Shown here in pieces: positions 3 to 49,910 of a DNA stretch of 64,000 bases (positions are counted from its first letter, which is position 1; the number at the start of each line of letters is the position of its first letter). The notes beneath the pieces are model-generated. The model did no database searches. It saw nothing but the letters and a program-made list of their open reading frames with translations, and was not told the origin of the DNA. The stretch is from the NCBI GenBank assembly GCA_965205015.1, contig OZ242029.1:4000001-4064000 (forward strand), given 5' to 3'. A program made the position numbers and the translations under genes. The stretch is from Candidatus Poribacteria bacterium (GTDB taxonomy: Bacteria > Poribacteria > WGA-4E > WGA-3G).

Positions 3-209
3 ACCTACGCACTCCTGCTTGCGAATCCCGAAAATACCGCTGCTGAACGGGGGATAGCGTTTCTGCTCAAACACCAGCGGGAAGACGGTTCATGGCTCGA
101 AAAATGCGTCGGCATCTATTGGGAGATCATCGGTGGCTACGCCGATCCGATTTACGCCTCCGTTTTCCCGATACTTGCCCTCAACCAGATGGCAATCAGC
201 AGTCAGTAG
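3..209 (+). CDS. C-terminal fragment of a squalene-hopene cyclase/prenyltransferase-like protein (5' end outside window)
   Basis: Manual translation of frame 3 gives ...AAERGIAFLLKHQREDGSWLEKCVGIYW...YASVFPILALNQ...*; QW motif (QxxDGSW) plus the terminal Y..FP..AL pattern of terpene cyclases. Confidence 0.7.
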   Translation, partial: TYALLLANPENTAAERGIAFLLKHQREDGSWLEKCVGIYWEIIGGYADPIYASVFPILALNQMAISSQ

Positions 210-310
210 TCAGCCATCAGTCTTTGGATAGAAGATGGAAAGTGTTGGGATGGAAGACTGGGAGGTTCGGGTCCCCATCCTTCCCTTCTTCCAGCCTTCC
301 AGTCTTTTCT
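190..310. repeat. Composite intergenic repeat: heptamer run (CAGCAGT/CAGTAGT/CAGCCAT) followed by an imperfect GGAAGACT/TTCCAGCC octamer palindrome
   Basis: 287-306 TCTTCCAGCCTTCCAGTCTT is the exact reverse complement of 12074-12093; the heptamer run resembles 8172-8205 and supplies the stop codon of the upstream CDS. Confidence 0.7.
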
Positions 311-2108: not shown

Positions 2109-5100
2109 CTATTCTTCTGAAGTTTCCGTTTCCATTTGGGTGCTCCCATTGTTCTGCCAATTGTCCGCTTTCTCCTTGAGTTTCTCGAGGTCCTCAGGGT
2201 TTTTGATGTCTACAATGTGTGGCGTAATGATGATAACAATCTCAGCGTCTTCAACAGCGTTCTCAGTGTTTTTGAAGAGTCTGCCGATGAGTGGGATGTC
2301 TCCCAAAATCGGAAGTTTGTTCTCCACCTGCTTCTGTTTCTTACGGATGATGCCACCGACGACAATCTGCTGCCCGTCCTCGACATCAATGTAGACACTG
2401 ATAGCGTTGTCATCGGTGATGGGTGCGTTGAAATCAGTAAACTCAATAAAGTTGCTGGCACTGATATTCTCAATATCCAATCCGATAGTCCGCTTGCCAT
2501 CCTCGCCTACTTGTGACTTAGCGATATAAGGCGTGAGCGAGATATTGATACCTACAGGCGGATCAATGAAATCATAGTTGAAAAGCGGTTGTGAGACGGT
2601 CTCCCCAAGGATACTCGTCGTATCAACGCTTTGGAGATACGGTATACGGCGACCGCTACTCCATGTGGCGTTCCAACTATCACGCGTCAAAAGTGATGGC
2701 GTTGAAAGGGTTTGCACCTTGTTCTCACGCATCAGCGTGTGGAGGAGTGCCATATACTCCTTGGTTGCCAAACCGAGGTTAAACCCTGAGATTTCCTGTT
2801 CAAGACCGAATTGTGTGTCGAGTTCCCCAATCAGTGGATTTCCGGGTCTCGGAGAGACACCAAAGATTTTGTTCTCTTTCGCAGTAAGTTCAATGCCGAG
2901 TTTCGTCGTTTCATCGAGTGTCACTTCGAGAATCTGGATATCGATCCAGACCTGACCTCGGACGAAGTCTAACTTCTGAATGAGTGCTTTGACCTGCGCG
3001 AAGTATCGTTGCTGCGTCGTGATAATCAGGGAATTCGTATCGGCATCCGCAAAGACGGTGACTTTTCCACGTAAGGAATTGATGTCTTGCTGTTCCTGTC
3101 TACCCCCGGAAGCAAAGAAACGGCTGAAACTAAAACCCCCGCTACCTTCCTCTCCCTCCCAGACCTGTTGAAGGACTTCTTGGAGATGATCTGCGCTCCC
3201 ATATTCAAGGCGAATGGCTTCCGTAATCTCCTTTTGCCCTGCCGGTGTCGGAACGTCCATGGAATTAATAAACTCCGTGATGAGATCAAAGTTGCGTTGT
3301 GTAGCGGTTGAGACGATGACAGCGTTGAGTGTCGGATATGGCTCGGCAGTGACGTTGCCAGCGAGTGAACCTTGGGTCTGATTGCGGTTCCGTTCCGCGA
3401 GGAAAAAGAAAAAGTTTCCCGTATTTTGTGAGCTACCTTGATAGACGTTATTGATGACAGCGGCGACGTTCTCTGCGTCGGCATATTCGAGTTTATACAT
3501 GCGAGTGCCCCACTCTTGGTCGGGCATATTGACATCGAGTCTTTTGATGAGCGCATCAATGGTTTCAAAGTTCTGTGCACTCGTCGATATAAGGATGGCA
3601 TTGAGCCGTAAATCGGCGACGAGGTGTACCTCGCCTTGGACGCCGAAACCAGTAGTGCTTTCAGTCGGTTCCCGGTCCCTGCGTCGCCACCACGGGAGGC
3701 CTCTGTCTGCGCCGGCACTTCCCCCTTCAAAGAGGTCTTGCAGACTCGGGACAAGGGTTTCCGCATCCGCGAACTTCAGAAAATAGAGTCTAATTTCTTC
3801 TTGCGTTTGTTCTTGGTCAAGTTCATTGATGACCTTCTCGATAATAGAGAAGTTGCGAGGGTCCGATGAAACGACAACGACATTGATTCGGTCGTTATGG
3901 GAAACATTGACAGTGCCGACAATGCCTTGTGCTGTATCGATACCCTGCTCGCGTTGATAGGTTCTCAATTTCGCACGATCCCAAGCGTTCATTCTGCGGC
4001 GATTATCCGGAACATCACCGGTAAGTACTTCTTGTAGGGTTTGGGCGACATCTGCAGCGGTTGCGTATTTCAGTCGGAAAGTGCGTATCTCGGTTGTGAC
4101 GTTCGGAGCAATGTCGAGTTCTTTGATAATTTCTTGGAGGAAAACAAGGTTCGCCTCGGACGCTTTGAGCACGAGTGAATTTGAGTTGACATCGGCGATA
4201 ATCTTGATTCTGCCTTGAAGCACTTCATAGCCGGTGCCATCGGCTTTCATTTCCGCTGCTGCGGCTTTTGCTTGTTCCGCATCGCCCCCGAGTCGACCGC
4301 GTTGTCCTTTGCCCTCTTCGTTTTCGCCCTCCTCTTGAAAAACGTTTGTGAGCGTTTGTGCCAACGGTTCCGCTTCAGCGTAAGTGAGCGGCACAATGAG
4401 AATCTTTAAAGGGAAGCGTTCGCCTTCATCTGCAATCTGGAGAATGGAAACAATACGGTGTATATTAGAAGCGACATCAGTAATGACGAGTGCGTTCGTA
4501 GCGGAATCTGCGAAAATATTTGCTTGTTTATTGAGAAGCGGCTTGAGTCGATCTACCTGCTCGGATGCGACAACGGTATCTAATTGGATGATGTAGGTTT
4601 GGATCTCGTCGGTCATGTCAACCCGTTCGGGGTTTGGTGGGATGCTTTTAACAATGCCTTTCGTTGCTATCGCGCGTGCGAAGGTTGTGACCAAGAGGGT
4701 GCTATCGGTTTGAATAAGCGTAAGATCATATTGCGTGAGGACGGTTTTGATTTTTTCAATGACTTCTTCAATCGTTACATTGTTGAGGTTAATCAGTGAG
4801 AATTTTTTATCCTTAATGTCTTCTTCACTCGCGATGATAGTGAGGTCGGCCTCTCGCGACAGCCATTCAAAGAGGCCTTTGAGTTCTTGGCTTGTAAAGT
4901 TAAAGTCGAACCGGATTGCGCGCCCTTGTTCGTCAGTTTCGGCGACACGCATTGTTGGTTGCTGTTCTTGCGCGTAAAGTTCAGCACACCCAACAATCAG
5001 CAATCCCAAACAAAATAGTGAAATAAGCGAAAACCGACCAGGATTATTGTGATTTATGTGATTTACCATGATGAAGAAACCTCTTATGACTGACAACTGA

Positions 5101-5120
5101 TGATTATACTGATGACTCAT
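2109..5120 (-). CDS. gspD: Type II secretion secretin GspD with extended N-domain array (alternative start 5069)
   Basis: N0 domain, six NolW-like repeats (e.g. LKYATAADVA, LKFADAE, LEYADAE), C-terminal secretin motif VVGGII...LPILGDIPLIGRLFK...IIITPHIV. Confidence 0.92.
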   Translation of the reverse strand: MSHQYNHQLSVIRGFFIMVNHINHNNPGRFSLISLFCLGLLIVGCAELYAQEQQPTMRVAETDEQGRAIRFDFNFTSQELKGLFEWLSREADLTIIASEEDIKDKKFSLINLNNVTIEEVIEKIKTVLTQYDLTLIQTDSTLLVTTFARAIATKGIVKSIPPNPERVDMTDEIQTYIIQLDTVVASEQVDRLKPLLNKQANIFADSATNALVITDVASNIHRIVSILQIADEGERFPLKILIVPLTYAEAEPLAQTLTNVFQEEGENEEGKGQRGRLGGDAEQAKAAAAEMKADGTGYEVLQGRIKIIADVNSNSLVLKASEANLVFLQEIIKELDIAPNVTTEIRTFRLKYATAADVAQTLQEVLTGDVPDNRRRMNAWDRAKLRTYQREQGIDTAQGIVGTVNVSHNDRINVVVVSSDPRNFSIIEKVINELDQEQTQEEIRLYFLKFADAETLVPSLQDLFEGGSAGADRGLPWWRRRDREPTESTTGFGVQGEVHLVADLRLNAILISTSAQNFETIDALIKRLDVNMPDQEWGTRMYKLEYADAENVAAVINNVYQGSSQNTGNFFFFLAERNRNQTQGSLAGNVTAEPYPTLNAVIVSTATQRNFDLITEFINSMDVPTPAGQKEITEAIRLEYGSADHLQEVLQQVWEGEEGSGGFSFSRFFASGGRQEQQDINSLRGKVTVFADADTNSLIITTQQRYFAQVKALIQKLDFVRGQVWIDIQILEVTLDETTKLGIELTAKENKIFGVSPRPGNPLIGELDTQFGLEQEISGFNLGLATKEYMALLHTLMRENKVQTLSTPSLLTRDSWNATWSSGRRIPYLQSVDTTSILGETVSQPLFNYDFIDPPVGINISLTPYIAKSQVGEDGKRTIGLDIENISASNFIEFTDFNAPITDDNAISVYIDVEDGQQIVVGGIIRKKQKQVENKLPILGDIPLIGRLFKNTENAVEDAEIVIIITPHIVDIKNPEDLEKLKEKADNWQNNGSTQMETETSEE

Positions 5121-6424
5121 TAAAATATTCGAGCGATGAGAAGCATGTCCACATTCAAATTTGTCCCATCTTCAGAATTGCGACCCCGTGCACCTGGACG
5201 CGCGCTTGTTTGCTTGTCGGCGGAGATCCGCAAATCTCGCACCGTGAGCCATTTGGCGCCAGTTTCGATGAGATGGTTCAAGTTAACAAGTTTCTCAAGA
5301 TTCGTTTTGAATTTCATTTCAACTGTGTAGTGTTCTATTTGATATGTCAGTGGTGCCAGCGCGAGGTGCCCTAAAAGTGTTGCGCGCTGTTCCTGAATCT
5401 CCTCAATGTATTTAGCAAGCGCATGTTGGCGTTCCCCTATATCTACGGGATCTTCTGATTGCGCGAGAATATCCAAAAAGACACTATTCCGCTGCAATTG
5501 GATGTCAACGGTAGCCGGCTTTGCACCGATACCGAAAATACCTGGCGTAGCGGCGGTTTTGACGCTGTGGAGTTGTGTCTCAAAGAAATCCTGCCTCGAA
5601 TCCGTCGCCCCTCGAAGCTGCTGTATTATCATGTTTTTGATAAATGCTGCAAGTTCGACTCGGACAGGGACGGGGATTGCCTCTGGCAGTGAAGAAAATC
5701 TCCACTGCGCCGCGGCATCCATTGAATGAGGCGGCTTTGCCTTATCCGTGCGTTCTGTTTCCTGTGTTGTTGATTCTGTTTCAGACATTTTACCGTCTAT
5801 TTCGCTGGGGGCAGGCACAGGCTCCGCCCCGACTTTATCTGTTTCGGATTCCGTTCCCGATAACCACGCATCCATTAGTATGTTGAAGGTATCCTCTTCT
5901 GCTTGCTGCTCCGCTACCTCAGCCAGCTCCATTTCTTCCGTCTCTATATGTTTAAGATAGAGATAGAGAACAAGGTTGCCTCGGTTCTGTACTGTCAGTT
6001 TCTGTGTTTGTTTAGCGGTTCCGGGTTTCGTGAGGAGCTGATAATTCTGTTGAATACCGGCGCGTCTCACGAGTCCATCAATTCGAGATCTAATAACGGT
6101 TTCGGGCAGCTCAGTATCAAAAATTGTAGGGGCGGGTTTTGTGCCTGCCCGTGCACGTTGCGAGTTCGTAGAGACTTGCGGATTCTCAGTGAGTGCCAAG
6201 CCAGTCTCTTTGTACATCTCGGCTTCAATGGGCTTAAGTATTTCTGCGGCATGTACCAAATTTTGGGTCTGCAACAACTGTTCTCGTTTCGCTTTTGTGT
6301 CTTGATTCACAAACAAACGATAAAAGACGGGACCTACCTGCATGGCGAGCAAAATTAAAAGCAGTCCACCCAAGATACCAAGTAAGATTCGGCTTCGCGG
6401 TGTTAATTGGAGATCCAGTTCCAT
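5120..6424 (-). CDS. Bitopic inner-membrane platform protein, GspM/PilO-like, with large insertion
   Basis: N-terminal LTPRSRILL plus TM helix; C-terminal ferredoxin-like pattern (VEMKF...LTVRDLRI); position between the PilM-like gene and the secretin. Confidence 0.55.
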   Translation of the reverse strand: MELDLQLTPRSRILLGILGGLLLILLAMQVGPVFYRLFVNQDTKAKREQLLQTQNLVHAAEILKPIEAEMYKETGLALTENPQVSTNSQRARAGTKPAPTIFDTELPETVIRSRIDGLVRRAGIQQNYQLLTKPGTAKQTQKLTVQNRGNLVLYLYLKHIETEEMELAEVAEQQAEEDTFNILMDAWLSGTESETDKVGAEPVPAPSEIDGKMSETESTTQETERTDKAKPPHSMDAAAQWRFSSLPEAIPVPVRVELAAFIKNMIIQQLRGATDSRQDFFETQLHSVKTAATPGIFGIGAKPATVDIQLQRNSVFLDILAQSEDPVDIGERQHALAKYIEEIQEQRATLLGHLALAPLTYQIEHYTVEMKFKTNLEKLVNLNHLIETGAKWLTVRDLRISADKQTSARPGARGRNSEDGTNLNVDMLLIARIF

Positions 6425-6431
6425 TTTTTAA

Positions 6432-8165
6432 TTATTCCTTATAAGGTTCCATATTTTCTGCTTCATCAATTGGCGGTGCGGGCAATGGAAAGCGTTTTTT
6501 GGCGAATGCCTTCACAGCGGATGCCGTTAGATTACACCTGACCTGTACTTGGAAAATCTGTTTTCTATCTTGAGAAATCGTTGTCACCTCACCCGGACGG
6601 ACATTGGTAAACACGCCAGAACGATCAAGGGCGCGTAAGAGCGTATTGATGGCGTTATGAGAGGCACTTTCCAAATTGAACGTAATACGCGCTGTTGTTG
6701 GTTCATGAAGGTTCGTAATATTAAAATTAGTCCATGCCACCTGTGTCCTATCGCCAAACATGTCACTAAGGGCATGCAAAATATCAAGCGGCGAGGTATG
6801 ATGCGCTAACATATCGGTGAGTGCTAACTCTTTCCCAAGTTGTACTTTCGCTGCAGACATGGGGTGTGCGTAATACGCGAGTTGCGCTTCTACGGCTTCG
6901 TTTCTATAGTGTTGCGAGCGTTGAAGCATGTAGCCCCCAAAAAGAATCCCACCGATCATCAAAACGCCTAACCCAGCGGCAGCAAAAAGTTGACGCTGCC
7001 GTGTGGTTTGCGTAAGGGTCTCAACCGCTTCCTTTGGCAACAGAGATATCGAGGTTGTTGACTTCAACGCATTGAGACCTACACCTAAAGGGACAGCAAA
7101 GGTATCGCCCCACGCATCAAGTGTCGCTTCTACTTCAGGAGACGAAGGGCGGATGTCAATACCAGCGTGTTGCTGAACGGCATGAATCGGATGCCACAGT
7201 TGTGTTGAAATGTCGAGTTCTGTTTCACAAGTGGATGCGAGGTCGGGGACACGCGCACCGCCACCACATAACCAGAGTTCAGTTTCTGTCTCTGACAGGA
7301 CGATATCCTGATAACCGTCGGTATTTACTTCCGCGGTGGCAGCAGTGATAGAACGTCGGAGTTCACCGATAAATTGAGTCGTCCAAGTATATGTAGGCAT
7401 TTCGCCTGCTGCGATATGCCGCTTTTCCTCCGCTGCCGTTTCAATATCTATATTCAAGGTACGACACAGATGTTCAGAGAGATGGTTACCGCCGAGACGG
7501 AAACTCCGTGAAAACCTGAGTTTCCCATCCTGCATGAAACAGAAGTCTGTGTGTTCGGCACCGATGTCAACAATAAACGTAGGTTTTGTGCATCCGCTGC
7601 CTGCTGCGGCCTCCGCTATGGCTATCATTGAGGGTGTAACTGCCGAGACGGAAACGCCGATCTGCTCGAGGAGATCCAAGTAGTTTGAAACTGACGTTCG
7701 CCGTGTGGATATCAATTCTACAGAAGAGGTCTCAGATGTCTGTTGTACATCGTGATACGTAAAGATAGCTTCCTCAACTCGAAAAGGGAGTTCGGCTTCC
7801 GCAGCGATTGCGACGATACTTGCGAGTTGTTCATCCGTTGCAGCCGGTAAATTGGATAAGCGTTTGGTATTCACTAAGGATCGGGGAAGGGCGAGAGCGA
7901 CTTCGGTCTTATTTCGGTTGAACATTGTCCTGAAAGCCTCTATAGGAGACCTGCGCCAGCGGATACCACCCTCCACCGGTAGATGCCCTGAAGCGTCCCA
8001 GAGATGTTTCAGCGATTCAGATACCTGCAGCCGGTCATCCTTGTCTGGATACGTCACGACGCTGGCATCGGTAAGATGCACCGTTGTAGAAAAAGACTGT
8101 TCAAGTTGAACGATTTTCGCTGTGTTTGTGCCGAGGTCTATCGCTACGACTCGATGTGTTGCCAT
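6432..8165 (-). CDS. pilM: PilM (actin-like) / PilN fusion, functional equivalent of GspL
   Basis: AIDLG...KIVQL, VDIGAEHT, LGGNHLS and LCGGGAR actin-fold motifs, then ISLLP (INLLP-like), a TM helix and a PilN-like periplasmic domain; ATG at 8165 preferred over 8186. Confidence 0.8.
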   Translation of the reverse strand: MATHRVVAIDLGTNTAKIVQLEQSFSTTVHLTDASVVTYPDKDDRLQVSESLKHLWDASGHLPVEGGIRWRRSPIEAFRTMFNRNKTEVALALPRSLVNTKRLSNLPAATDEQLASIVAIAAEAELPFRVEEAIFTYHDVQQTSETSSVELISTRRTSVSNYLDLLEQIGVSVSAVTPSMIAIAEAAAGSGCTKPTFIVDIGAEHTDFCFMQDGKLRFSRSFRLGGNHLSEHLCRTLNIDIETAAEEKRHIAAGEMPTYTWTTQFIGELRRSITAATAEVNTDGYQDIVLSETETELWLCGGGARVPDLASTCETELDISTQLWHPIHAVQQHAGIDIRPSSPEVEATLDAWGDTFAVPLGVGLNALKSTTSISLLPKEAVETLTQTTRQRQLFAAAGLGVLMIGGILFGGYMLQRSQHYRNEAVEAQLAYYAHPMSAAKVQLGKELALTDMLAHHTSPLDILHALSDMFGDRTQVAWTNFNITNLHEPTTARITFNLESASHNAINTLLRALDRSGVFTNVRPGEVTTISQDRKQIFQVQVRCNLTASAVKAFAKKRFPLPAPPIDEAENMEPYKE

Positions 8166-8171
8166 TCTTTT

Positions 8172-8305
8172 ATCAGCAGTCAGCAATCAGCGGTCGGCAA
8201 TCAGTAGGAAACATCTAAGCAAAACACTCTATTTTGTCAGAAACCTCTTTACTAAAGGTTTCCGATGGTCTCCGATGGTTCCGATAGCCATTCTTGCTGA
8301 AAGCC
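8172..8305. repeat. Intergenic heptamer/decamer repeat element (CAGCAGT-CAGCAAT... AGAAACCTCTTTACT ...TCCGATGG)
   Basis: Tandem 7-mers and (T)CCGATGGT units; homologous segments in inverted orientation at 8897-8995 and 10805-10864. Confidence 0.75.
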
Positions 8306-8311
8306 ACTCCT

Positions 8312-9871
8312 TCAGTCCTGTTGCCAATATTGTACAATTATTTGGTTGCCTGTCCGATCAATGATGCCGATACAGGTCGAAACAACCTTTCCAGCAACAT
8401 CAACACCCTTTGCTTCAATACGATACCCGTGCGAACGGTAGGTAATCCCATCAACAACTTCGCGAAACGTTCCAAAATCAATCCCCTCTACTTGGGACAC
8501 TTGTGAGATATTCGTGAATGGATTTCCTTTGATCTCATCTTCAGTAAGACCCTGTACCTGCGGGGCATCGGATACATCCTCTTCACGGCGTTCGACGATC
8601 GCTTGTGCCTTTTGTGGGTCCATCCCCGGTAGCAGGGCTAATATCTCAGGCGGTGCTGTGTTTATATTAATGAGTCCTTGGCGCGTCTCTCCATCTTTTA
8701 GGGTTATTTTATCAACAATGCTGATGAATTCCTGCTGCGTCAACATCTTTACCTCTTTGATTGCATCGATGTTCTGGAAAAGGCCTTGTCCCTCACGATG
8801 GCTGATAATGCGTTCGGCAATACCTTGGTCAATCCCGTCTAAGGACTCCAAAGTTTCGACATCGGCGGTATTGATATTAACTTTCCCACCCTCATCGCTG
8901 GCTGCCGGCTGTTGATTGCCGGTTTCCGTCAGTAAAGGGGTTTCTGATGAAGTTTCACCCTGTTCCTGATTGCTGGTCGCTGACTGCTGATTGCTATCTT
9001 CAGTCGTCAATTGGTCTCGGATATTGTTGAAAAGGTCATCGGAAACCGCTTGGACATCCAATAGTGCGGCAAATTTGTCAAAATCACGTTGCTGGATGAG
9101 CGATTCCGCCTCAGCTTGCGTGAACACAGGTTGATTTTGCTGTGCAGTAACTTTCGTCAACGCCTCTGCATCCGCTGTATTGACGTTGACGAGCGGTTCT
9201 CCACCCGGATCGGTGCTGGCGTCAACGGAATAAATGGTAGTTAAACCAACAAGTCCGGGAATAGCCGTCAGTTCCTGTTGCTGAAGATTATTCGTTTGCG
9301 AGAATGTTCCTGTGTTCGTGATACTTGATGATGACTGATCGCCGTAAAGAAGTTCGGAGGTCATGCCTTCAACCCGAGCGAGATCTCTAACGGTGCGATA
9401 CGGGCGTCCTTCCACAATTTCGTTAGCAAGAACTTCGGTGCTTGCATCATCTGGGGGAGCGCCTGCCTGTGCGAGCAAGTTGCTGACAAGTCCTACGTCG
9501 GCGGTGTTAATATTAACTTTAGATGCCTCATCTACAACTGTCACTTGATAGTTTAAGAAATTGCCAACCTGAATGCCATCCGCAACCTGCCCTTGGATCG
9601 GTTCAGCCCAAGTTTCGCCGAGTGAGTCAAAAGGGGTTTGGTCACCACGCATAACGGCGAGGGTCCACTCGAAGCCTGCTCTTGCAGCGTAGTGAAACTT
9701 CGATCTGTCCAAGAAATTCCGTTGGGTTCGCTGCTCTATGTGGATTGAATAGAGCAACTGCGCCGCAAGAATGGACAGAATCGTTAGTATCCAGAGCGTT
9801 GAGACGAGAGATAGACCGCTCTGTTCCTTGTAGAATGCGCAGGCGTTCGGTTTTGTGAACCGCATCATCAA
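8312..9871 (-). CDS. gspK: Minor pseudopilin GspK with four helix-hairpin-helix/SAM-like modules
   Basis: Class III leader QSG|LSLVSTLWIL (no E+5, typical of GspK), DEASKVNIN motif, four N(I/V)NTA repeats. Confidence 0.85.
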   Translation of the reverse strand: MMMRFTKPNACAFYKEQSGLSLVSTLWILTILSILAAQLLYSIHIEQRTQRNFLDRSKFHYAARAGFEWTLAVMRGDQTPFDSLGETWAEPIQGQVADGIQVGNFLNYQVTVVDEASKVNINTADVGLVSNLLAQAGAPPDDASTEVLANEIVEGRPYRTVRDLARVEGMTSELLYGDQSSSSITNTGTFSQTNNLQQQELTAIPGLVGLTTIYSVDASTDPGGEPLVNVNTADAEALTKVTAQQNQPVFTQAEAESLIQQRDFDKFAALLDVQAVSDDLFNNIRDQLTTEDSNQQSATSNQEQGETSSETPLLTETGNQQPAASDEGGKVNINTADVETLESLDGIDQGIAERIISHREGQGLFQNIDAIKEVKMLTQQEFISIVDKITLKDGETRQGLININTAPPEILALLPGMDPQKAQAIVERREEDVSDAPQVQGLTEDEIKGNPFTNISQVSQVEGIDFGTFREVVDGITYRSHGYRIEAKGVDVAGKVVSTCIGIIDRTGNQIIVQYWQQD

Positions 9872-9880
9872 TAAAATCTC

Positions 9881-10930
9881 CTAAGGTCCACCTGCAGTGA
9901 CACTCGCAGGAAGATACACCATCGTCGCTTGCGTCATACCCCTTGATTGGACTGTCGGTGGACTCTGCGTTGTGGCTTGCGCTACATCAATATTCACAGG
10001 TACCCGCGTTTCGCCTTGAACGGTTATGCGAATTTGTACAGCACTTGGAACACTTTCAGCATCGTTCCATGAGGTGCGCCATGCTTCCGCTTCTCCATCG
10101 AAATACTGGAGATCAAAGCTGGCAAGCCCGGCAACAAGTGTTGCGATATTGACATAAATTGGCTCACCATTTTCATCTGTCTCTGGAACCTCACCCGTCT
10201 GTAAGAGCGCACGGATAACAACTTCAGGGTCGAGTGCTGTCGTTGTAACCCGAAAGAGAGCGAACTCACCGCTCTGGGCATCTTCAACAGGGTCTGAACC
10301 CTGTAGGGGTGATATCTCTGTAGCGGATTCGCCGGGTAATGGTTCGGATCCAACAAAATAAGCCACACGCTGCACATCACTTAAAAGTGGCACAGGCGTT
10401 TGCGAGGCGTTCTGAGATTGGAAACTTGCAAGTTGCGCCAAGAACGGATCTGGATCCGTCTTAACGAGCGTGACAAAGCTGAGCATGTCCCTATCGCCTA
10501 ATTGGCTGGGACCATCTTGCGTATAGAAAGCGAGTACTGGATCCTCCAGTGAAATTTGCATGTTGCTGAGGTCCGTCACAATCCGATCCATCGCGACCCG
10601 ACATCTCTGGGCAGCCAATATTTTCCCCTCTGTCCGATGGTAAGCGTCAACGGCTGTTTTGAAAGCAAAATACGCCGAACCGCCGATGATAACGAGGATA
10701 CTGACTGCCATGAGCATCTCAACGAGTGTCAGTCCACTTTCGGTGTATTGACTCAAACCCGCCACTCGTGCTTTGCAGTCTTGTATCGGAGTCGAGTTGG
10801 GGGTTCGGGAAACCGTCGGAAACCGTTGGAACCCCTCAGCAAAGAGATTCTCTGGCTGACTGCTATTAACGCAGGTTTCTTGGGTTTTCATGATTTCTGA
10901 TGCCTTCGTAGAAATATTATCAACCGCCAC
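9881..10930 (-). CDS. gspJ: Minor pseudopilin GspJ-like, long leader (start could be 10891)
   Basis: SG|LTLVEMLMA N-methylation motif; C-terminal FDLQYFDG..W...W....VPSAVQI pattern. Confidence 0.8.
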   Translation of the reverse strand: MAVDNISTKASEIMKTQETCVNSSQPENLFAEGFQRFPTVSRTPNSTPIQDCKARVAGLSQYTESGLTLVEMLMAVSILVIIGGSAYFAFKTAVDAYHRTEGKILAAQRCRVAMDRIVTDLSNMQISLEDPVLAFYTQDGPSQLGDRDMLSFVTLVKTDPDPFLAQLASFQSQNASQTPVPLLSDVQRVAYFVGSEPLPGESATEISPLQGSDPVEDAQSGEFALFRVTTTALDPEVVIRALLQTGEVPETDENGEPIYVNIATLVAGLASFDLQYFDGEAEAWRTSWNDAESVPSAVQIRITVQGETRVPVNIDVAQATTQSPPTVQSRGMTQATMVYLPASVTAGGP

Positions 10931-11369
10931 CCTGCTGCGCTTGTTGTGGCATTTGCCGATCAGCGATATAGGTGCTCATAGACAGTGAACGTTCTCTGTT
11001 TCTATGTATCCATGTGACGGTTACTTGAACCCGACGAATGTTTTCAACCTCTTCAGAATCTACGTCCTCAACGACGGAACGCCAACGATAGCGTGTATTT
11101 TCACCGAACTCGTCAGATTCTTCACCAACATCTGGATACCCCTCCATCTCAATCTCCGCCATCCGATATTTGAGCAGATAGAGTGCGGTCGTACTGTTGT
11201 CTGAAAGTCCTTGGTTCCGCGCAGCGATAGCAAACGCTTGTAACAAGGCTGGCAGGACAGCCGCCAAAATCGCCAACGTCACAAGAACCTCAACGAGGGT
11301 AAAACCGTCTTTTTCTTCTGGTGCTGGGCGCGTTTTTTTTGTGATTCGCAAGGCGTTAAATCCCGTCAT
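10920..11369 (-). CDS. gspI: Minor pseudopilin GspI-like
   Basis: DG|FTLVEVLVTLAIL; YRWR and RRVQVTVTW motifs; small size. Confidence 0.85.
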   Translation of the reverse strand: MTGFNALRITKKTRPAPEEKDGFTLVEVLVTLAILAAVLPALLQAFAIAARNQGLSDNSTTALYLLKYRMAEIEMEGYPDVGEESDEFGENTRYRWRSVVEDVDSEEVENIRRVQVTVTWIHRNRERSLSMSTYIADRQMPQQAQQGGG

Positions 11370-11386
11370 AACTCTGAAAGGTAAAA

Positions 11387-12169
11387 TTAAAAGGAGTCGG
11401 CGGTTTCAAAGCCCAACATCTCGATCTCCTGAGATGTGAGTTGTCGCACACGGACCCGTCCGCTCGCCGCCTCAACAGTGACAGACATTATCTGGTTCCG
11501 CGTGTTCCTGAGATATACGAAAGCATCCTCGGAGGTAGAAGTCGGCGAGAAATAGATGTACGCCACGCCAGAATCAACCTGAACAGTCCTACCGTTGTGG
11601 TTGGTTACCATCGTGGCTAATGTTACATGCTGTTCCATGGAATAGGGTACTCCCAAGATACCGCTGGATCGTGCCAAAGGTACCTGTGAAGCGGAGGTTC
11701 CCGCCGTCGGAAGGGTTTGTAACCCCGAATTCCTGTTTATATTATTCTGTGCAGCCGCTACAGCCGTAGAATTTTGAGCCGTCAGTGTTGACGTAAGCGG
11801 ATTACTTGGGTCAAACGTTTCGCTGGAGGCAAGCCAGTATCGATTGTTGTCAAAATCAAAAACAACGAGATGTGTCGTTTGATCCGTGACTGCCATATCT
11901 CGGGCAAACGTGAGAAGACTGCGGAGTGTATAAGCAGAAGCTTTTAAACGGCGCGTTGTCACGAACCCTTTCAGTGCCGGCATAGAGATTGCTGACAGTA
12001 TACCGATGAGGGTCAAGACGATGAGCAACTCCGTAACTGTGAATGCCGAAGTCCCCGTAGCGACTGGTGGTGGAAGACTGGAAGGCTGGAAGATTGAGCG
12101 GGAGACATTTCTTTCCGCCTTCCCGCCTTCCCGCCTTCCCGCCTTCCCTCTTTCGGTCGGGCGTAACAT
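11387..12169 (-). CDS. gspH: Minor pseudopilin GspH/FimT-like with 42-aa repeat-containing leader
   Basis: SA|FTVTELLIVLTLIGIL; ARDMAV; C-terminal SGRVRV; ATG at 12169 lies just after the gspG stop with GGAG upstream. Confidence 0.8.
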   Translation of the reverse strand: MLRPTERGKAGRREGGKAERNVSRSIFQPSSLPPPVATGTSAFTVTELLIVLTLIGILSAISMPALKGFVTTRRLKASAYTLRSLLTFARDMAVTDQTTHLVVFDFDNNRYWLASSETFDPSNPLTSTLTAQNSTAVAAAQNNINRNSGLQTLPTAGTSASQVPLARSSGILGVPYSMEQHVTLATMVTNHNGRTVQVDSGVAYIYFSPTSTSEDAFVYLRNTRNQIMSVTVEAASGRVRVRQLTSQEIEMLGFETADSF

Positions 12170-12173
12170 CGTT

Positions 12174-12644
12174 TTAGTAGGCTCCGGTGGTTTCATCAAC
12201 CCAATTGGTAATGTCTGTGTCCAGGTCAGTGCCGCCTACCTTCCCATCCTTACCCATCGAATAGAGGTCGTAGTCGTATCCGTAGTGGGTACTGGGCTGG
12301 CGATAGACGTATGGGTTATTCCATGGATCCACGAAATTGGGACTGTCAATATAGGGACCATCCCAATTGGCGGGGGCAGGGCTCGGTACCCGCCATAAGG
12401 CGCTTAACCCTTGTTCGGTTGTAGGGTATTCACCCGTTGCGATCGCATACTGTTCCAACGCCGTTTTTATGCCGTTAATTTCTGTTTGTGCCTTCGCGAC
12501 TTTTGCTTGCTGCGGGGCGTTGATAACGCGCGGCGCGATGAAGGCAGCCAAAATCCCTAAAATGACGATCACAATCGTCAATTCAATGAGTGTTAAACCC
12601 GACTGATCAGATTTCAGTTGCGCGTACATTTTATTTTTCTCCAT
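12174..12644 (-). CDS. gspG: Major pseudopilin GspG
   Basis: SG|LTLIELTIVIVILGILA; YPTTEQGL, NWDGPY, DPWNNPYVY, LYSMGKDG, DITNW. Confidence 0.96.
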   Translation of the reverse strand: MEKNKMYAQLKSDQSGLTLIELTIVIVILGILAAFIAPRVINAPQQAKVAKAQTEINGIKTALEQYAIATGEYPTTEQGLSALWRVPSPAPANWDGPYIDSPNFVDPWNNPYVYRQPSTHYGYDYDLYSMGKDGKVGGTDLDTDITNWVDETTGAY

Positions 12645-12650
12645 TTTAGA

Positions 12651-12839
12651 GTTGTCTGTTGTCAGTTTTCAGTGAAGAGGGTTTCTCGTAACAATCTCCC
12701 AAAGTGTTCTAAAGTTATAGAGTCTGTACAGTTGTAAGAGTCATTCGGACGTTCCAAACATCTCTTTCAACTTCCGAACTTCCCAACTTTAGCACACTCT
12801 CAAACTTTTTGCCCTCTTGTAACTGATAACTAAGAACTG
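12651..12839. repeat. Nested imperfect palindromes between gspF and gspG
   Basis: Outer arms 12651-12681 and 12812-12839; inner arms AGTGTTCTAAAGTT 12703-12716 and AACTTTAGCACACT 12785-12798; innermost arms about 12731-12740 and 12762-12771. Confidence 0.75.
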
Positions 12840-14072
12840 TTAACCGCTTAATAATTGGTTTGCCTCAAAGATCGGGAGGATCATCGCAACAGCGATAAAC
12901 CCGATAACAAGTCCCATGAGTAAAATGACAAGCGGACCGATGGAACTTGTTAGACGTTCAAGGCTCTTTTTTATTTCTAAATCGTAATATTCAGAGAGTT
13001 TGCTCAGCATGTGGACAGGTTCACCAGATTCCTCGCCAACCGCTACCATGTGGGTGACGAATTCAGGAAAATCCTTGCTTCTACTCAGCTCACGTGCGAG
13101 CGAGGACCCCTGCTCAACTTCCGTTTCTGCTGCGGCGACGACATTACTGTATACCTTATTCCCGATAGTGTCCTTGACGACTTGGAGAGCCGGCAGCATA
13201 CGCACACCATTTTCTAAAAGTGTTGCCATCGTTCGAGTGAAGCGAACAATGGCAAAGGTGCTAAATATGGGGCCGATAAGAGGTAATTTGAGTTTTAGGC
13301 GGTCAAACCAAACTTGACCGGTTTCATGACGGAGATATTGGTTCAAACCTGCTACGCCGACAATGACCGCGAGAAGCCCGAGCCACCAATAGGTTTGAAA
13401 GGCATCGGTCGTCCCAATGAGAATTCGCGTCGGCAGCGGCAATTCGACACCGAGATCGTTGAACATCGCGGTAAATTTCGGTATGACAAGAATCATGAGT
13501 ACTGCAACAGCGGAGACACTCAGTGTTAACAGGATAACTGGATAGAAGAGTGCTGAGATGACATCGTTTTTGAGGAGTCTCTGCCGTTCTGCGAATTCCG
13601 CGAGCCGTTCTAAGACTATGCCAAGGACACCACCACTCTCGCCGGCTCTTACCATGTTGACATAAAGATCAGAAAACACCTTCGGGTGCTGCGTGAGAGC
13701 GTCGTGGAAAGTCGCGCCGTGTTCCACATCGTACTTGACTTGGGAAACAATACGATGAAGTGCAGGATTTTGGATTTGACCGAGTGTAACCTCCAGTGCG
13801 CGTGGCAGCGGGACATGCGCGTTCACCAACGTTGCTAATTGGTACGTAAAGAACTCAACATCCGCTGCCTTGACTCCACGCCCACCGATCTTAAACCAAC
13901 GACGGACATCCGCCGGTGCTGCCTCCTCCGTTTCTTCAACAATGTCTGTGGGCCAATAGCCCATCTGCCGTAAACGAGAAATAAGCTCGGCTTTGGAGTC
14001 AGCTTCTATTGTATTCGTAACGGTACCACCGCCATGGGTGAGTGCTTCATATCGGAATACTGGCACAATCAA
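12840..14072 (-). CDS. gspF: Type II secretion inner-membrane platform protein GspF
   Basis: F..QLATLV, HPKVFSDLYVNMVRAGESGG, ALFYP, LPLPT, AVGEESG, AMILPI. Confidence 0.95.
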   Translation of the reverse strand: MIVPVFRYEALTHGGGTVTNTIEADSKAELISRLRQMGYWPTDIVEETEEAAPADVRRWFKIGGRGVKAADVEFFTYQLATLVNAHVPLPRALEVTLGQIQNPALHRIVSQVKYDVEHGATFHDALTQHPKVFSDLYVNMVRAGESGGVLGIVLERLAEFAERQRLLKNDVISALFYPVILLTLSVSAVAVLMILVIPKFTAMFNDLGVELPLPTRILIGTTDAFQTYWWLGLLAVIVGVAGLNQYLRHETGQVWFDRLKLKLPLIGPIFSTFAIVRFTRTMATLLENGVRMLPALQVVKDTIGNKVYSNVVAAAETEVEQGSSLARELSRSKDFPEFVTHMVAVGEESGEPVHMLSKLSEYYDLEIKKSLERLTSSIGPLVILLMGLVIGFIAVAMILPIFEANQLLSG

Positions 14073-14106: not shown

Positions 14107-14898
14107 TTAATACCCTTTCAGACTACCCCACATCGTCGCGAGTTTCGCCTTGGGGGCCACCGATAACCCTCCACTGTTCGGAATACTGTCGCCGGTAATC
14201 ACAACGTTGTCGAATCGCGCTGTTTGATTCGAGAGTCCCAAACCCGCCGCTCCTGTCAGGAAATCTTGGAACCCATTTAATTGCCATGCTTGAAACCGTT
14301 CAGGTTGTCCTTCTTCTTCCGCATGTTGTTTCCTGATAGCGTTAATACGTTCAAAAGTCCGACGGTTTGGAAGTTGGATAGGCCCAATAACCTGATTACC
14401 GTTAATCCAAAAATTTAGGATATTTTCTTTAACATCTAACTTTAACTTCGACCACTTGTTTAATTTTAAAGATCGATGAAATTTAAAATGTGAAAATACG
14501 AATGTTTGTGGGTCCTGAAAATTGCCAGCAGCAAACCCAGTCCTGGAGACGTTATCGCCAAGTAGCGTATCGCCGATGAAACACCATGCAACCCAACTCC
14601 CTTTGACCCGAGCGGCAATAGCGATATAGCCGGGACCTGGCTTTTCAAGCGGTTTGACATCAAATTCGATGGTGTAATCGCGCCACGTCTCATCACCGAC
14701 CGTGAGTAAACGAATCCAGCCGTCAGGGCTAACCGCATGAAGTTCACGACCAACGATTTTCCAAGAACCGGGCAGGGCATCACGAACGAGAATCTCTTTC
14801 CATGCGCCGAAGTTATTATCAAAATCTTCCAAAAATGTTCCTGCTCTTGCCGAAAAGGCGGCGAGGAAAATAAGACTTACAATCACTACCAACTTCAT
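14107..14898 (-). CDS. Secreted concanavalin/DUF1080-like beta-sandwich protein with C-terminal VAPKAKLATMWGSLK motif
   Basis: Signal peptide ARA|GTFLEDF; GDETWRDYTIEFDVK; ARFDNVVITG. Confidence 0.7.
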   Translation of the reverse strand: MKLVVIVSLIFLAAFSARAGTFLEDFDNNFGAWKEILVRDALPGSWKIVGRELHAVSPDGWIRLLTVGDETWRDYTIEFDVKPLEKPGPGYIAIAARVKGSWVAWCFIGDTLLGDNVSRTGFAAGNFQDPQTFVFSHFKFHRSLKLNKWSKLKLDVKENILNFWINGNQVIGPIQLPNRRTFERINAIRKQHAEEEGQPERFQAWQLNGFQDFLTGAAGLGLSNQTARFDNVVITGDSIPNSGGLSVAPKAKLATMWGSLKGY

Positions 14899-14946: not shown

Positions 14947-16722
14947 TTACACAACTTCCACGAAATCAAATTCGTCTTCCTGCGTTAGTCGAATCACCTC
15001 GTCAACCGTTGTCAATCCAGCAGCGACCTTGCGCCAACCGTCTTCACGTAAGCCTTTCATACCCATTTGAACAGCGAGTCTACGAATCTCACTCGTCGAT
15101 GCCTGCTTGAGTGCCATTGCGCGAATTTCATCCGTCATAAGTAAAACTTCAAAGATGCCGATTCTACCTTTGTAACCCCTCCCCCGGCACTCCTTACATC
15201 CAACTGCCCGCGGAATTTTCAAATCGTAAGAAATAGCCGTACTGTTGCCAGGGCTGTTACCGTTACCCATCAGGCCCGCCAATTCGTGCATGTCGGGAGA
15301 ATACATCTCACAACACGCCTTGCACACACGGCGAGCAAGTCTTTGGGCGATGACCCCCTCTACCGTGGAGGCAACGAGATAGGGTTCAACGTTCATATCG
15401 ATAAGTCGCGTGATTGCACCAGGGGCATCGTTGGTGTGAAGCGTGCTAAAGACGAGGTGTCCTGTGAGGGAGGTATGAATCGCCATCTCGGCAGTTTCAT
15501 AATCCCGAATCTCACCGACCAATACCTTGTCGGGATCCTGCCGTAGGATATGTCGGAGCCCCTGCGCGAAGGTAAAACCTATATCGGGATTGACCTGGAT
15601 CTGGTTAATCCCCTCTAATTCGTACTCTACGGGGTCTTCAAGCGTTATGATTTTGACATCGGGTGAGTTAATCTCTTTCAAACACGCATATAGCGATGTC
15701 GTTTTTCCGCTACCGGTGGGTCCCGTTGCAAGGATGATACCGTACGGTTTACGGATCATACGTTGAAAGAGCTGGAGGTTTTCCTCGGTTAACCCGAGTT
15801 CTTCAAGCCCGAATTCTATAGATTGACGATCGAGGATACGGAGGACAACGCTTTCACCGTGCAGTGTGGCGACTGTTGGCACCGTAGAGACGCGAAGGTC
15901 TATTTGCCGGTTACCGACGCTCCCAATCTGCCGACTGATTTTTCCATCTTGTGGACGTCTCCGTTCTGCGACATCCATCCCCGCCATGATTTTGATACGC
16001 GAAGTGATGGCAGATTGGAGATAGGCGGGGGGTTGCGGCTGATCCTCCAGCACGCCATCGACACGGAAACGGATTTTCAGTTGCGTCGGGTAGGGCTCAA
16101 TGTGGATATCGCTGGCTCCCATTCGGACGGCATCGATAATCATCTGGTCAACGGCGTGTATAACTGTCGGATCTTGGCTGAGGTCTTTCTCATCAATGCC
16201 GAAATCGTCAATCGTCTCGCGTTCAAGCGTGGCAGTTGCACCCACGGGTCCCTTGATACCCGCACTGAGGAGGCTTTCAGCGGTGCGTCCATAGAGACGA
16301 ACGATTGCCTCGTCAATATCCGTTTCATCCGCAAGGATAGGTGTAATTTGGCAATTTGTGATGAGTTCAATCTCGTCAATGAGAACGACATCCAAAACAT
16401 CCACCATCACAACCGTGAGTTGATCTCCGATCAACTCTATAGGGACGATTTTATTTCGGTACGCGAACCCGGGTGACACCTTTTCAAGCACGGCAGATTC
16501 AGGAGAAATCCCTTCTAATTGAATGAAAGATGTGCCGCATTCGACACTTTTTGTGGCGAGTGCAAGGATATTGGAGGGTACGCCATGCTTAGAAAGCACA
16601 GCGGCTTCGGATACGCCGGTCTGTTTTATTTCTGCAACGATCTCTGTGTAGTCTTGTTCAGAAATGAGAGATGCCTGTCGCATCACCTCAACAAGCGAAT
16701 CCGTATTCAGCGTCTGTTGCAT
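14947..16722 (-). CDS. gspE: Type II secretion / pilus assembly ATPase GspE
   Basis: ASDIHIEP, ERRRPQDG, Walker A GPTGSGKT, TLEDPVE, LRQDPD, Walker B VLVGEIRD, TGHLVFSTLH, tetracysteine CxxC...CxxC. Confidence 0.96.
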   Translation of the reverse strand: MQQTLNTDSLVEVMRQASLISEQDYTEIVAEIKQTGVSEAAVLSKHGVPSNILALATKSVECGTSFIQLEGISPESAVLEKVSPGFAYRNKIVPIELIGDQLTVVMVDVLDVVLIDEIELITNCQITPILADETDIDEAIVRLYGRTAESLLSAGIKGPVGATATLERETIDDFGIDEKDLSQDPTVIHAVDQMIIDAVRMGASDIHIEPYPTQLKIRFRVDGVLEDQPQPPAYLQSAITSRIKIMAGMDVAERRRPQDGKISRQIGSVGNRQIDLRVSTVPTVATLHGESVVLRILDRQSIEFGLEELGLTEENLQLFQRMIRKPYGIILATGPTGSGKTTSLYACLKEINSPDVKIITLEDPVEYELEGINQIQVNPDIGFTFAQGLRHILRQDPDKVLVGEIRDYETAEMAIHTSLTGHLVFSTLHTNDAPGAITRLIDMNVEPYLVASTVEGVIAQRLARRVCKACCEMYSPDMHELAGLMGNGNSPGNSTAISYDLKIPRAVGCKECRGRGYKGRIGIFEVLLMTDEIRAMALKQASTSEIRRLAVQMGMKGLREDGWRKVAAGLTTVDEVIRLTQEDEFDFVEVV

Positions 16723-48162: not shown

Positions 48163-48972
48163 ATGCAGATACACCATGTTTTTATGTTAGTCCTCTTTTT
48201 TACCAGTCTATTGTTTCTTGGAAACGCAGCGGCTGATAGTATAAAAACGCAACTCGAAGCATCACCGCGTCACGGCGAATGGGTGAAAGTGCCAACGGCT
48301 GATGCACGGACTGTCAACACATTTGTTGTTTACCCAGAGGTGAAAGAACCCGCAACGGCTATTATCGTCATCCACGAAATCTTTGGGCTTACGGATTGGA
48401 TCCGTCTTGTCGCAGACAAGCTCGCCGCTGAAGGGTTTGTTGCAATTTGTCCCGACCTTCTTTCCGGTATGGGTCCCGACGGTGGCGGCACAGAGAGTTT
48501 CGCCTCCGGTGATGACGTCCGACGGACCATCCGTGAACTCTCTTCTTCCCAAGTTACATCCGATCTGGATGCCATCCAAAAATATGCCCGCGACCTACCT
48601 TCAACCAATGAAAAAGTGGCTGTCTCCGGATTCTGCTGGGGAGGCGGACAAACGTTCAGTTACGCCGTTCATTCCGATACAATCGCCGCTGGTTTCGTAT
48701 TCTACGGTCGCGCCGCACCAACAGAAGATGTCCCTAAAATATCAGTACCGGTTTACGGCTTTTACGGCGAGAGCGACAACCGTATCAATGCCACGATTGA
48801 TGCCACTAAAGCCGCAGCGGATGCCGCGAACGTCACCTACGAACCCGTTATCTATGAAGGTGTCGGTCACGCCTTCCTAAGGCGCGGTATGGCAGAGGAC
48901 GCAAATGACGCGCAGAAAACTGCCACCAAAGCCGCCTGGGAGCGGTGGGTATCCCTTCTGCGAGGACTCTAA
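48163..48972 (+). CDS. Dienelactone hydrolase family protein, exported
   Basis: IHEIFGL, GFCWGG, D.RI, GHAF catalytic motifs. Confidence 0.92.
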   Translation: MQIHHVFMLVLFFTSLLFLGNAAADSIKTQLEASPRHGEWVKVPTADARTVNTFVVYPEVKEPATAIIVIHEIFGLTDWIRLVADKLAAEGFVAICPDLLSGMGPDGGGTESFASGDDVRRTIRELSSSQVTSDLDAIQKYARDLPSTNEKVAVSGFCWGGGQTFSYAVHSDTIAAGFVFYGRAAPTEDVPKISVPVYGFYGESDNRINATIDATKAAADAANVTYEPVIYEGVGHAFLRRGMAEDANDAQKTATKAAWERWVSLLRGL

Positions 48973-48982
48973 AGGAACACGC

Positions 48983-49747
48983 ATGGCAAACCGACTTAAA
49001 GATAAGATCGCCGTTATCACCGGTGCAGCCCGAGGCATCGGTGCGAAAAGCGCAGAACTCTTTGCGAGTGAAGGTGCCGCTGTGGCTATCTGGGATCTGA
49101 ATGCCGAGCGCGGCGAAGAAACCGTGCAGCAGATCCGATCTTCTGGTGGAACTGCTCTTTTCTCCGAGTGCGACGTAACTGATGCTACACAGATTGAACG
49201 TGCCGTTGCCTATGTCACCTCCGAACTTGGCACGCCGAATGTATTGTTCAACAACGCCGGTATAGCTGTCGTAGGCGAATTAGAAGAGATTTCCGAAGCA
49301 GACTGGGATCACCAATACGCCGTCAATGTAAAGAGTATCTATCTCGTTTCTCGTGCGATAATCCCATTGATGCGCGAAGCCGGGGGCGGTTCGATTATCA
49401 ACATGGCGAGTGAATCGGCGTATGTCGGGTTCCCGATGCACCCCGCCTATACCTCCTCCAAAGCCGCCGTCGTGCATCTCACACGAAGCATGGCAGTCCG
49501 ATATGCTGAGGACAACATCCGTGTTAACAGTCTCTGCCCCGGCACGATTAACACCGAACTCTATCAAGAATTCCTATTGAAGCAACCCGATCCAGAAGCG
49601 ATCAACACAGAGATCAAAGAGATGCATCCCTTAGGCATCGGCGAACCGGAAGACATCGCTTGGGCGGCGGTCTATTTAGCCTCCGATGAATCCAGATACA
49701 TGACGGGTGCCCCGATGCTCGTCGAGGGTGGCATATTGTCCCTTTAG
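48983..49747 (+). CDS. Short-chain dehydrogenase/reductase
   Basis: TGAARGIG, NNAG, YTSSK, IRVN...PG. Confidence 0.93.
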   Translation: MANRLKDKIAVITGAARGIGAKSAELFASEGAAVAIWDLNAERGEETVQQIRSSGGTALFSECDVTDATQIERAVAYVTSELGTPNVLFNNAGIAVVGELEEISEADWDHQYAVNVKSIYLVSRAIIPLMREAGGGSIINMASESAYVGFPMHPAYTSSKAAVVHLTRSMAVRYAEDNIRVNSLCPGTINTELYQEFLLKQPDPEAINTEIKEMHPLGIGEPEDIAWAAVYLASDESRYMTGAPMLVEGGILSL

Positions 49748-49763: not shown

Positions 49764-49910
49764 GAAGAAATCCGCAGAAATACGCAGAAATACGCAGAAA
49801 TACGCAGAAATACGCAGAAACACCCAAGCAAAGACACCAAGCAAAGACACCAAGCAAAGACACCAAGCAAATACCCCTATCAATACGCAGAAATACCCAA
49901 GCAAAAACAC
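49764..49910. repeat. Compound tandem repeat
   Basis: T(A/C)CGCAGAAA x5 (49771-49820), then CACC(C)AAGCAAA(G/T)A x4 (49821-49873), then mixed modules. Confidence 0.92.

Follow-up and report, generated by a model that had tools for sequence, protein, structure and literature searches.

Genome-wide palindromic repeats probably lengthen the cleavable leaders of minor pseudopilins in Candidatus Poribacteria

How do two minor pseudopilins of a single secretion operon come to carry leader peptides of 42 and 53 amino acids (aa)? The question is raised by a type II secretion system (T2SS) operon of Candidatus Poribacteria, encoded on the minus strand in the first 17 kb of the window, that is, of the whole stretch of 64,000 nucleotides (nt) analysed here (contig OZ242029.1, positions 4,000,001 to 4,064,000). 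The passages of a review that deal with class III signal peptides (PMC4471445) give leaders of 6-26 aa overall and of about 15-30 aa for type IVb pilins, call a glycine at position -1 critical, and describe the leader as remaining cytoplasmic and being cleaved. The leaders of gspH (42 aa) and gspJ (53 aa) are hydrophilic and basic, and lie outside the range of 6-26 aa. They appear to be long because palindromic repeats, found genome-wide, occupy in-frame positions after the start codon and ahead of the cleavage site. The comparisons below establish the repeats, their membership in dispersed families, a conserved start and frame, and how widely leader length varies. We consider it fairly probable, judging from sequence, that the repeats lengthen the leaders in frame, and that the added peptide is translated, cleaved off and tolerated as disposable.

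Both proteins have the N-terminal architecture of class III substrates. After the cleavage site follows a hydrophobic helix with Glu at +5 (FTVTELLIVLTL in gspH, LTLVEMLMAV in gspJ), and the prepilin N-terminal model TIGR02532 scores 17.2 bits for gspH and 18.5 bits for gspJ, against a cut-off of 16.3. The equivalog models for GspH and GspJ match under their cut-offs; for the gspH-like gene (11387-12169, 260 aa from ATG 12169), TIGR01708 has E = 9e-9, below the curated cut-off. The major pseudopilin gene gspG (12174-12644; T2SSG, E = 3.5e-36; TIGR01710, E = 1.7e-42) ends in a TAA stop 4 nt upstream of the gspH ATG.

The gspH leader, MLRPTERGKAGRREGGKAERNVSRSIFQPSSLPPPVATGTSA followed by FTVTELL, is encoded by the 126 nt from 12044 to 12169. 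Most of this DNA is a hairpin built of octamers (12071-12150), with arms joined by a short loop. The 5' arm (12111-12154, repeat family D1) contains about five octamers GGAAGGCG on the transcribed strand, and Tandem Repeats Finder reports 4.8 copies of CTTCCCGC with 96% matches at 12111-12148. The 3' arm (12071-12093) consists of CTTCCAGC/CTTCCAGT units, approximately three CTTCCAGY octamers, reported as 2.9 copies of TGGAAGAC. The minus-strand RNA from 12040 to 12185 folds with -60.4 kcal/mol (z = -3.35). Twenty nucleotides of the hairpin (12074-12093) are the exact reverse complement of 287-306, and with up to three mismatches this word has 2 matches against 0.01 expected, a count reached by none of 100 shuffles. 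Its partner belongs to an intergenic composite element (187-310, plus strand) that lies upstream of a glycosyltransferase gene (348-1052) and consists of a heptamer array (192-214) followed by a second octamer hairpin (about 230-310). The original prediction had described a 42-aa gspH leader without a later ATG, made up mostly of this palindrome and sharing 20 nt with 287-306, and it was accurate in all three respects. GTG and TTG are absent too: beyond codon 1 the leader holds no in-frame canonical start, and a single ATC is the only other cognate or near-cognate codon.

The question of translation was addressed by comparison across loci. The window and 80 further gspH loci, one per species genome, were collected; removing five without a recognisable motif and two with a cut or short gspG left 74. 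All 80 genome loci come from Poribacteria or from uncultured sponge-associated metagenome-assembled genomes, and those of the 447 GspH homologues that carry a source name are Candidatus Poribacteria. Most loci have 67 nt between the gspG stop and the codon at which mature gspH begins; elsewhere this stretch measures 46, 49, 85, 97, 106, 130, 169 nt and more. At 65 of the 74 loci the gspH frame crosses it without a stop, which the other two frames do at 15 and 20, and the total number of stops is 17 in the gspH frame versus 115 and 90. An in-frame ATG, GTG or TTG lies at -2 to +12 nt of the gspG stop at 62 loci (5 and 8 in the other frames), and 60 of the 74 combine a start near the gspG stop with an open frame up to the cleavage site. 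The start position is kept 3-8 nt after the gspG stop, and many loci have no alternative start at all.

Leader lengths, which the original prediction had proposed to compare across orthologues, range from 14 to 55 aa for gspH, with 21 aa the commonest (31 loci). An MLRTT-type N-terminal motif is retained in leaders of 21, 27, 31, 34 and 42 aa among the 120 homologues listed. The octamer clade, with 21 cluster representatives, has two length states: 42 aa in ten representatives and one more called from an internal ATG, and 34 aa in eight and two more called from an upstream ATG. The difference of 8 aa corresponds to 24 nt, or three octamers, and is located in the 5' arm, as seen by comparing DNA of the 130-nt and 106-nt classes. 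These patterns indicate that the gspH inserts are probably translated from the conserved upstream start.

A much longer junction was seen at locus L057 (L057:2717-3000), where 283 nt between gspG and gspH contain four 60-nt hairpin units with the peptide period TVARGPVPRDRPLETKTAPD, open in the gspH frame. Its canonical in-frame starts lie only inside the 3' end of gspG and, if used, would give a leader of 111-114 aa; locus L058 has one copy of this type of unit. A reading of L057 as four copies of a 65-nt unit, tried as a frame test, was rejected, as the translation gives a 20-aa (60-nt) period. The copy number is therefore frame-neutral, and this locus gives no evidence of a frame constraint.

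The gspJ leader (gene at 9881-10891 from ATG, or to 10930 from GTG) offers a second case. Its coding stretch (10733-10891) gives 53 aa from a conserved ATG, MKTQETC...QYTESG followed by LTLVEM, and ends in Gly at -1. The coding frame has no stops, and frames 1 and 2 have two and three, respectively; the frame is already open upstream of the gspI stop. Start codons in this frame stand 66 (GTG), 53 (ATG), 11 (GTG) and 8 (TTG) codons before the cleavage site. The window's gspJ shares the MKTQE start and the TESG end with the 15-aa leaders of two other loci (L009, L011), and between them lie 114 nt. An alignment with MAFFT places this in-frame insertion of about 114 nt (38 stop-free codons) at 10746-10859, with approximate boundaries, and a decamer array occupies 10808-10831 (Tandem Repeats Finder). 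The gspK-pilM spacer contains, at about 8237-8285, an inverted match to about 50 nt of this leader, with approximately 78% identity and three gap positions. This bears out the proposal of a 53-66-aa gspJ leader related to an element at 8172-8305. The spacer itself (8187-8311) carries, besides this inverted element, a decamer array (8260-8285) and heptamers (8172-8204).

A sister lineage, with gspJ leaders of the form MNQSFLRE...ESG, covers 12 aa (L004, L007), 24 aa (L008), 40 aa (L001), 45 aa (L002, L012) and 52 aa (L005, L006). Across insertions of 36-120 nt the MKTQE and MNQSFLRE motifs stay in frame with the mature protein, and no gspJ start downstream of the insertion was found in L001, L002 or L008. 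In most species the leaders of gspI and gspJ are 15 aa long, in gspJ resembling MKIQKISTHGTSESG, and the spacers upstream of these two genes measure 38 to 892 nt; most insertions there fall in non-coding DNA in front of an unchanged start for a 15-aa leader. Among the 21 expanded junctions between gspI and gspJ, 12 (L005, L006 and the window excluded) have a start that gives a leader of 5-19 aa, and six have none. Expanded junctions occur at 23 of 74 loci between gspG and gspH, 25 of 67 between gspH and gspI, and 21 of 67 between gspI and gspJ.

Are these inserts copies of something more widespread? Genome-wide counts, which refer to related genomes (G001-G008) and not to the window's own, suggest so. 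The octamer motif GGAAG(N3)GGAAG(N3)GGAAG has 55, 31 and 18 matches in three related genomes, versus 8, 4 and 2 for a reversed control, and many of the matches pair convergently about 35 nt apart, that is, as hairpins. GGCGAG(N4-12)CTCGCC, which resembles the hairpin of the 21-aa leaders, has 55-178 matches per genome versus 1-18 in the control; seven inspected copies lie after genes, several with terminator-like T-runs, and only some copies begin with GTAGG. The gspJ-type motif has 3-8 matches per genome versus none in the control. Y1_Tnp transposase genes (IS200/IS605/RAYT-type) were found in all five genomes searched (G001, G004, G006-G008; 5-12 matches each), and these transposases are candidates for moving the palindromic repeats.

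The octamer elements are not confined to extragenic DNA. A long open reading frame (ORF) runs through 28 of the 42 distinct elements of genome G001, and none through the other 14. Nine elements are flanked on each side by 100 or more open codons, two lie near ORF 3' ends, and 17 lie at ORF 5' ends, often right before the hydrophobic core of a signal peptide. In 10 of the 17, an in-frame start comes no more than 12 codons later, which probably places those elements in the 5' untranslated region (5' UTR); the remaining seven, gspH included, have no such start. A Pfam search was run on ten G001 ORFs that cross an octamer element, all of them mechanical rather than curated calls. One Hydantoinase_B match (residues 14-559, profile positions 1-518 of 519) spans the element at residues 124-147 of HyuB. 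Other elements lie between the CN_hydrolase and NAD_synthase domains of NadE, inside an MFS match, between TPR and FG-GAP domains, after the S49 domain of SppA, and between two UvrA-like parts. Pfam domains flank or span the element in at least four cases; insertion is thus in frame, in unrelated genes, and with the host domain kept. The in-frame hairpins of the Hydantoinase_B/oxoprolinase, NadE, MFS and TPR/FG-GAP proteins are at the G001 loci L122, L148, L133 and L145. At L084 (G001) and L088 (G003), a heptamer array and an octamer hairpin stand between UvrA-like C- and N-terminal parts with no stop between them; this arrangement could represent a duplicated UvrA, or else a tandem pair of uvrA-like genes that are read as one.

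In these genomes, gene junctions are where repeat elements accumulate. The window has 29 tandem arrays, of which 10 are intergenic (12% of the sequence), 10 lie in the first 160 nt of ORFs (about 11%) and nine are interior (77%), with ORFs taken from their longest possible start and hence perhaps over-extended. Far from the operon, two near-perfect arrays adjoin each other at 49766-49871, AGAAATACGC in 5.5 copies (97%) and CCAAGCAAAGACA in 3.7 copies (100%). They stand in an intergenic gap of about 500 nt between the ORFs 48905-49747 and 50252-52408, together with an 11-mer pair at 49972-49994.

The pseudopilin leaders host copies of dispersed families, as the original prediction of leaders as landing sites implied, and the further idea that leaders tolerate such repeats is supported by this family membership and by the conserved start and frame. 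They are not a special target: the three pseudopilin junctions are expanded alike, and the same repeats occur in intergenic DNA and in enzymes.

A mechanism can be proposed that would join these observations. Three repeat families, namely GGAAG-octamer palindromes, a TTCCGAYGG-decamer element and heptamer arrays, would insert at the junctions. The conserved position of the gspH start, 4 nt past the gspG stop in the window, looks like translational coupling; as the start adjoins the stop, an insert at the junction would fall downstream of the start and enter the reading frame. It would be retained only if it were a multiple of three bases long and free of stops. The octamer element seems suited to both conditions, having no stops in any frame and reaching eight whole codons with every three units. 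The resulting 42-aa gspH leader would be hydrophilic, positively charged and cytoplasmic, and prepilin peptidase would presumably remove it. A leader that is both cytoplasmic and cleaved would leave the mature pseudopilin unchanged. The prepilin peptidase family Peptidase_A24 is present in all three related genomes searched. By the same route, gspJ may have acquired its 114-nt in-frame insert. Translation of the inserts, cleavage of the leaders and tolerance through leader disposability are the parts of this scheme that we infer.

Several findings weigh against it. None of the three frames of the window's gspH leader contains a stop; the window alone therefore carries no frame signal, and the leader's open frame by itself proves nothing about translation. 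The closest GGAG lies 12 nt before the gspH ATG, a long spacing. The gspH leader ends in Ala at position -1, a residue shared by 25 of 119 GspH homologues; 94 of the 119 have Gly, the residue that the review considers critical. Nine of the 74 loci do show stops in the gspH frame beyond the end of gspG, with a relocated start (e.g. L007, L010, L030), and three cluster representatives (P0022, P0039, P0102) have short, differently started leaders. The protein sets are the output of gene callers, in which frameshifted variants would look like short-leader calls. For gspJ, the GTG at -11 and the TTG at -8 leave a short-leader reading possible.

Could the hairpin instead be the selected feature? It would then act as regulatory RNA, be it as an attenuator, as a brake on translation or through mRNA stability, and hold GspH-K at low levels compared with GspG, with the leader peptide as a by-product. 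We regard this as possible, though on balance unlikely. Evidence for it comes from the 21-aa class, in which a 12-bp stem lies at the same place in 33 aligned junctions of 66-73 nt (four more distant ones of the 37 were left out). Here, 88.4% of the cells are paired versus 34-49% with slid partners, the covariation score is 0.329 versus 0.190 in shuffles (none of 500 reach it), and five pairs are changed on both sides. Leader folds have z < -2 at 39% of the 74 loci versus 11% of same-length controls inside gspH, and different lineages carry unrelated hairpins in the same position. The dispersed GGCGAG...CTCGCC relatives, following genes and often with T-runs, recall terminators. There is also a precedent, as described in part of a study of the Streptococcus gallolyticus pil1 operon (PMC3894217), in a repeat-bearing leader peptide combined with a terminator.

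A general regulatory role is, however, difficult to reconcile with the absence of a significant hairpin in several lineages (the 46-, 49- and 85-nt classes, L026 and L043), and with a sense strand that folds no better than the antisense strand (27 versus 40 loci, p = 0.10). Many unrelated junctions, and enzymes too, carry members of these families, and expansions between gspH and gspI or gspI and gspJ are about as frequent as between gspG and gspH. The window hairpin has no T-run. Its stem is followed by CCACCACC, which lacks the U-run of an intrinsic terminator; the corresponding tail in relatives that have 21-aa leaders, TATTTCTC, is U-rich only in part. A scan for terminators and promoters at the gspG-gspH junction (12040-12170) was negative, hairpin included, with counts no higher than in shuffles. 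Rfam gave no family at threshold, and a miRNA-like hairpin match was rejected as chance (27.3 bits versus a gathering score of 97). Apart from the window's own, octamer-type leaders have weak z values against dinucleotide shuffles (-0.8 to +0.4 in L001, L002 and L004-L006), probably because the shuffles preserve the GGAAG/CTTCC composition. An effect of the hairpin on the expression of the minor pseudopilins is possible.

A combined reading would see the octamer palindromes as "coding-compatible" mobile elements, colonising translated sites where an added peptide is harmless, such as pseudopilin leaders, the N-terminal regions of signal peptides and inter-domain linkers. At the gspG-gspH junction, the hairpin would have become a ribosome-dependent attenuator or slippage switch that sets the amount of minor pseudopilin and the number of pseudopili. 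This proposal is speculative, and we hold it to be rather doubtful.

Alternatively, the repeats might be non-coding, with translation of gspH, gspJ or both beginning downstream and the leaders being short. This would fit the in-frame GTG (-11) and TTG (-8) of gspJ, the 10 of 17 5'-end elements in G001 that resemble 5'-UTR elements with a start within 12 codons, and the openness of the octamer element in every frame, through which ORFs may run by chance. A start downstream of the repeats, which the original prediction had itself named as the finding that would make them non-coding, is excluded for gspH on canonical codons, as one ATC is the only cognate or near-cognate codon after codon 1; for gspJ it is possible at the GTG and the TTG. 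The gspH start is conserved beside the gspG stop, and the frame statistics hold over 74 loci. In gspJ, the frame set by the conserved MKTQE start passes through 38 inserted codons without a stop, in contrast to the two and three stops of the other frames, and downstream gspJ starts are absent from L001, L002 and L008. We therefore consider short leaders improbable, particularly for gspH. Still less likely is a contingency locus in which slippage by one or two octamers would frameshift gspH and switch secretion off in part of the population: the 8-nt unit is not a multiple of three and stands in the 5' coding region in 4.8 copies at 96% identity, the 34-aa and 42-aa states recur among close relatives (e.g. 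P0012, P0027), and three representatives have short, differently started leaders, but the array is short and imperfect, only two in-frame states exist among the 21 representatives, and a metagenome scan for close relatives gave 2 loci only. As for sequencing runs, four contain at least half of the sampled words, and two RNA runs contain 6%.

Are other genes of the operon affected in the same way as gspH and gspJ? Heptamer repeats had also been proposed to overlap the 5' ends of gspD and pilM. For pilM, this depends on the start. The heptamers at 8172-8204 overlap the TTG-extended ORF only, and the ATG at 8165 (MATHRVVAIDLG) is downstream of them. The proposed heptamers at 5080-5110 of gspD could not be confirmed: Tandem Repeats Finder gave no row over this stretch, and the tandem repeat detected at the 5' end is a 9-mer present twice (5048-5065). 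The gspD 5' end does contain an element of about 36 nt (5038-5072) that includes an ATG and encodes MVNHINHNNPG, identical at 31 of 36 positions to the start of the L007 gspH leader. Its counterpart there (L007:2934-2970) reads MLNHINHKNPG. This suggests that the shared stretch may be a portable 5' module with its own start codon.

The remaining operon genes, also on the minus strand, are gspE (14947-16722), gspF (12840-14072), gspI (10920-11369), gspK (8312-9871), a PilM/GspL-like gene (6432-8165 or 8186), a GspM-like gene (5120-6424) and gspD (2109-5120). The spacer between gspF and gspG (12650-12789) holds a heptamer array (12650-12673) and a CAACTTCC octamer array (12768-12789). Between gspE and gspF lies a 263-aa ORF (14107-14898), which has a signal-peptide-like N-terminal start, MKLVVIVSLIFLAAFSARA. 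The GspK-like protein (8312-9871, 519 aa) has three ComEA-type helix-hairpin-helix stretches besides its T2SSK domain (HHH_3, E = 3.6e-35; TIGR00426, E = 1.2e-25), which is unusual for a minor pseudopilin.

How do these elements compare with known systems? Rickettsia palindromic elements (RPEs) are dispersed and inserted in frame in unrelated coding genes, where they are read as extra peptide, according to the description given of them in PMC10969869. The Poribacteria octamer elements, in frame in HyuB, NadE, an MFS protein and others, are alike in this respect. They differ from RPEs, as far as that description goes, in phylum and sequence, and in being built of 8-nt units that are stop-free in all frames, over approximately 50-100 nt. 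In the pseudopilins, furthermore, the insert lies in the part that would be cleaved off, not in the mature fold. Repetitive extragenic palindromes (REPs) are short and GC-rich, with many copies between co-directional or convergent genes and some intragenic, and are proposed to be moved by RAYT tyrosine transposases, as outlined in part of PMC3733652. Many dispersed palindrome copies were found here as well, and the GGCGAG...CTCGCC hairpins agree with this description; some copies begin with GTAGG, and Y1_Tnp genes are present in five of five genomes. However, in most species a copy stands inside a probably translated leader, at odds with the extragenic location that gives REPs their name, and the GTAG head is not present on all copies.

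In the S. gallolyticus pil1 operon, the portion of PMC3894217 that treats the leader reports tandem repeats that alter the length of a translated leader peptide before a stem-loop upstream of the pilus genes, and reading ribosomes that destabilise the terminator. Poribacteria likewise combine a repeat and a hairpin in what is probably a translated leader. The pil1 leader is a separate small ORF and serves sortase-dependent pili, whereas here repeat and hairpin are within the pseudopilin's own class III signal peptide. Genes for phase-variable surface proteins can also carry repeat tracts in the part that encodes the signal peptide, as in the CTCTT tract of Neisseria opa. Like those tracts, the octamer unit is not a multiple of three and stands in the 5' coding region of a cleaved N-terminal peptide; unlike them, it was seen only in in-frame length states, and its short arrays form a hairpin with an inverted arm. 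Type IVb pilins share hydrophilic class III leaders of more than 10 aa. In contrast to those pilins, the present cases belong to the T2SS minor pseudopilins; their leaders measure 42 and 53 aa in the window and reach 55 aa in relatives, and the extra length is repeat DNA and not a conserved peptide. In the open-access literature, we found no description of such elements in Poribacteria or of prepilin leaders this long. What sets the present case apart is its phylum, a frame-neutral element composed of octamers, and the position of that element within class III leaders.

Leaders of 42-55 aa suggest that prepilin peptidase and membrane insertion tolerate long and arbitrary N-terminal extensions. 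For annotation they are a warning: gene callers place starts inconsistently near the elements, and the leaders of one family were called with anything from 5 to 72 aa. Palindromes within reading frames are known from few cases, Rickettsia RPEs and intragenic REPs among them, and to these the elements add a phylum of uncultured sponge symbionts. They also offer a simple structural reason for how a palindrome may be accommodated there, namely stop-free units of which three keep the frame, and provide a testable candidate for the control of pseudopilin stoichiometry.

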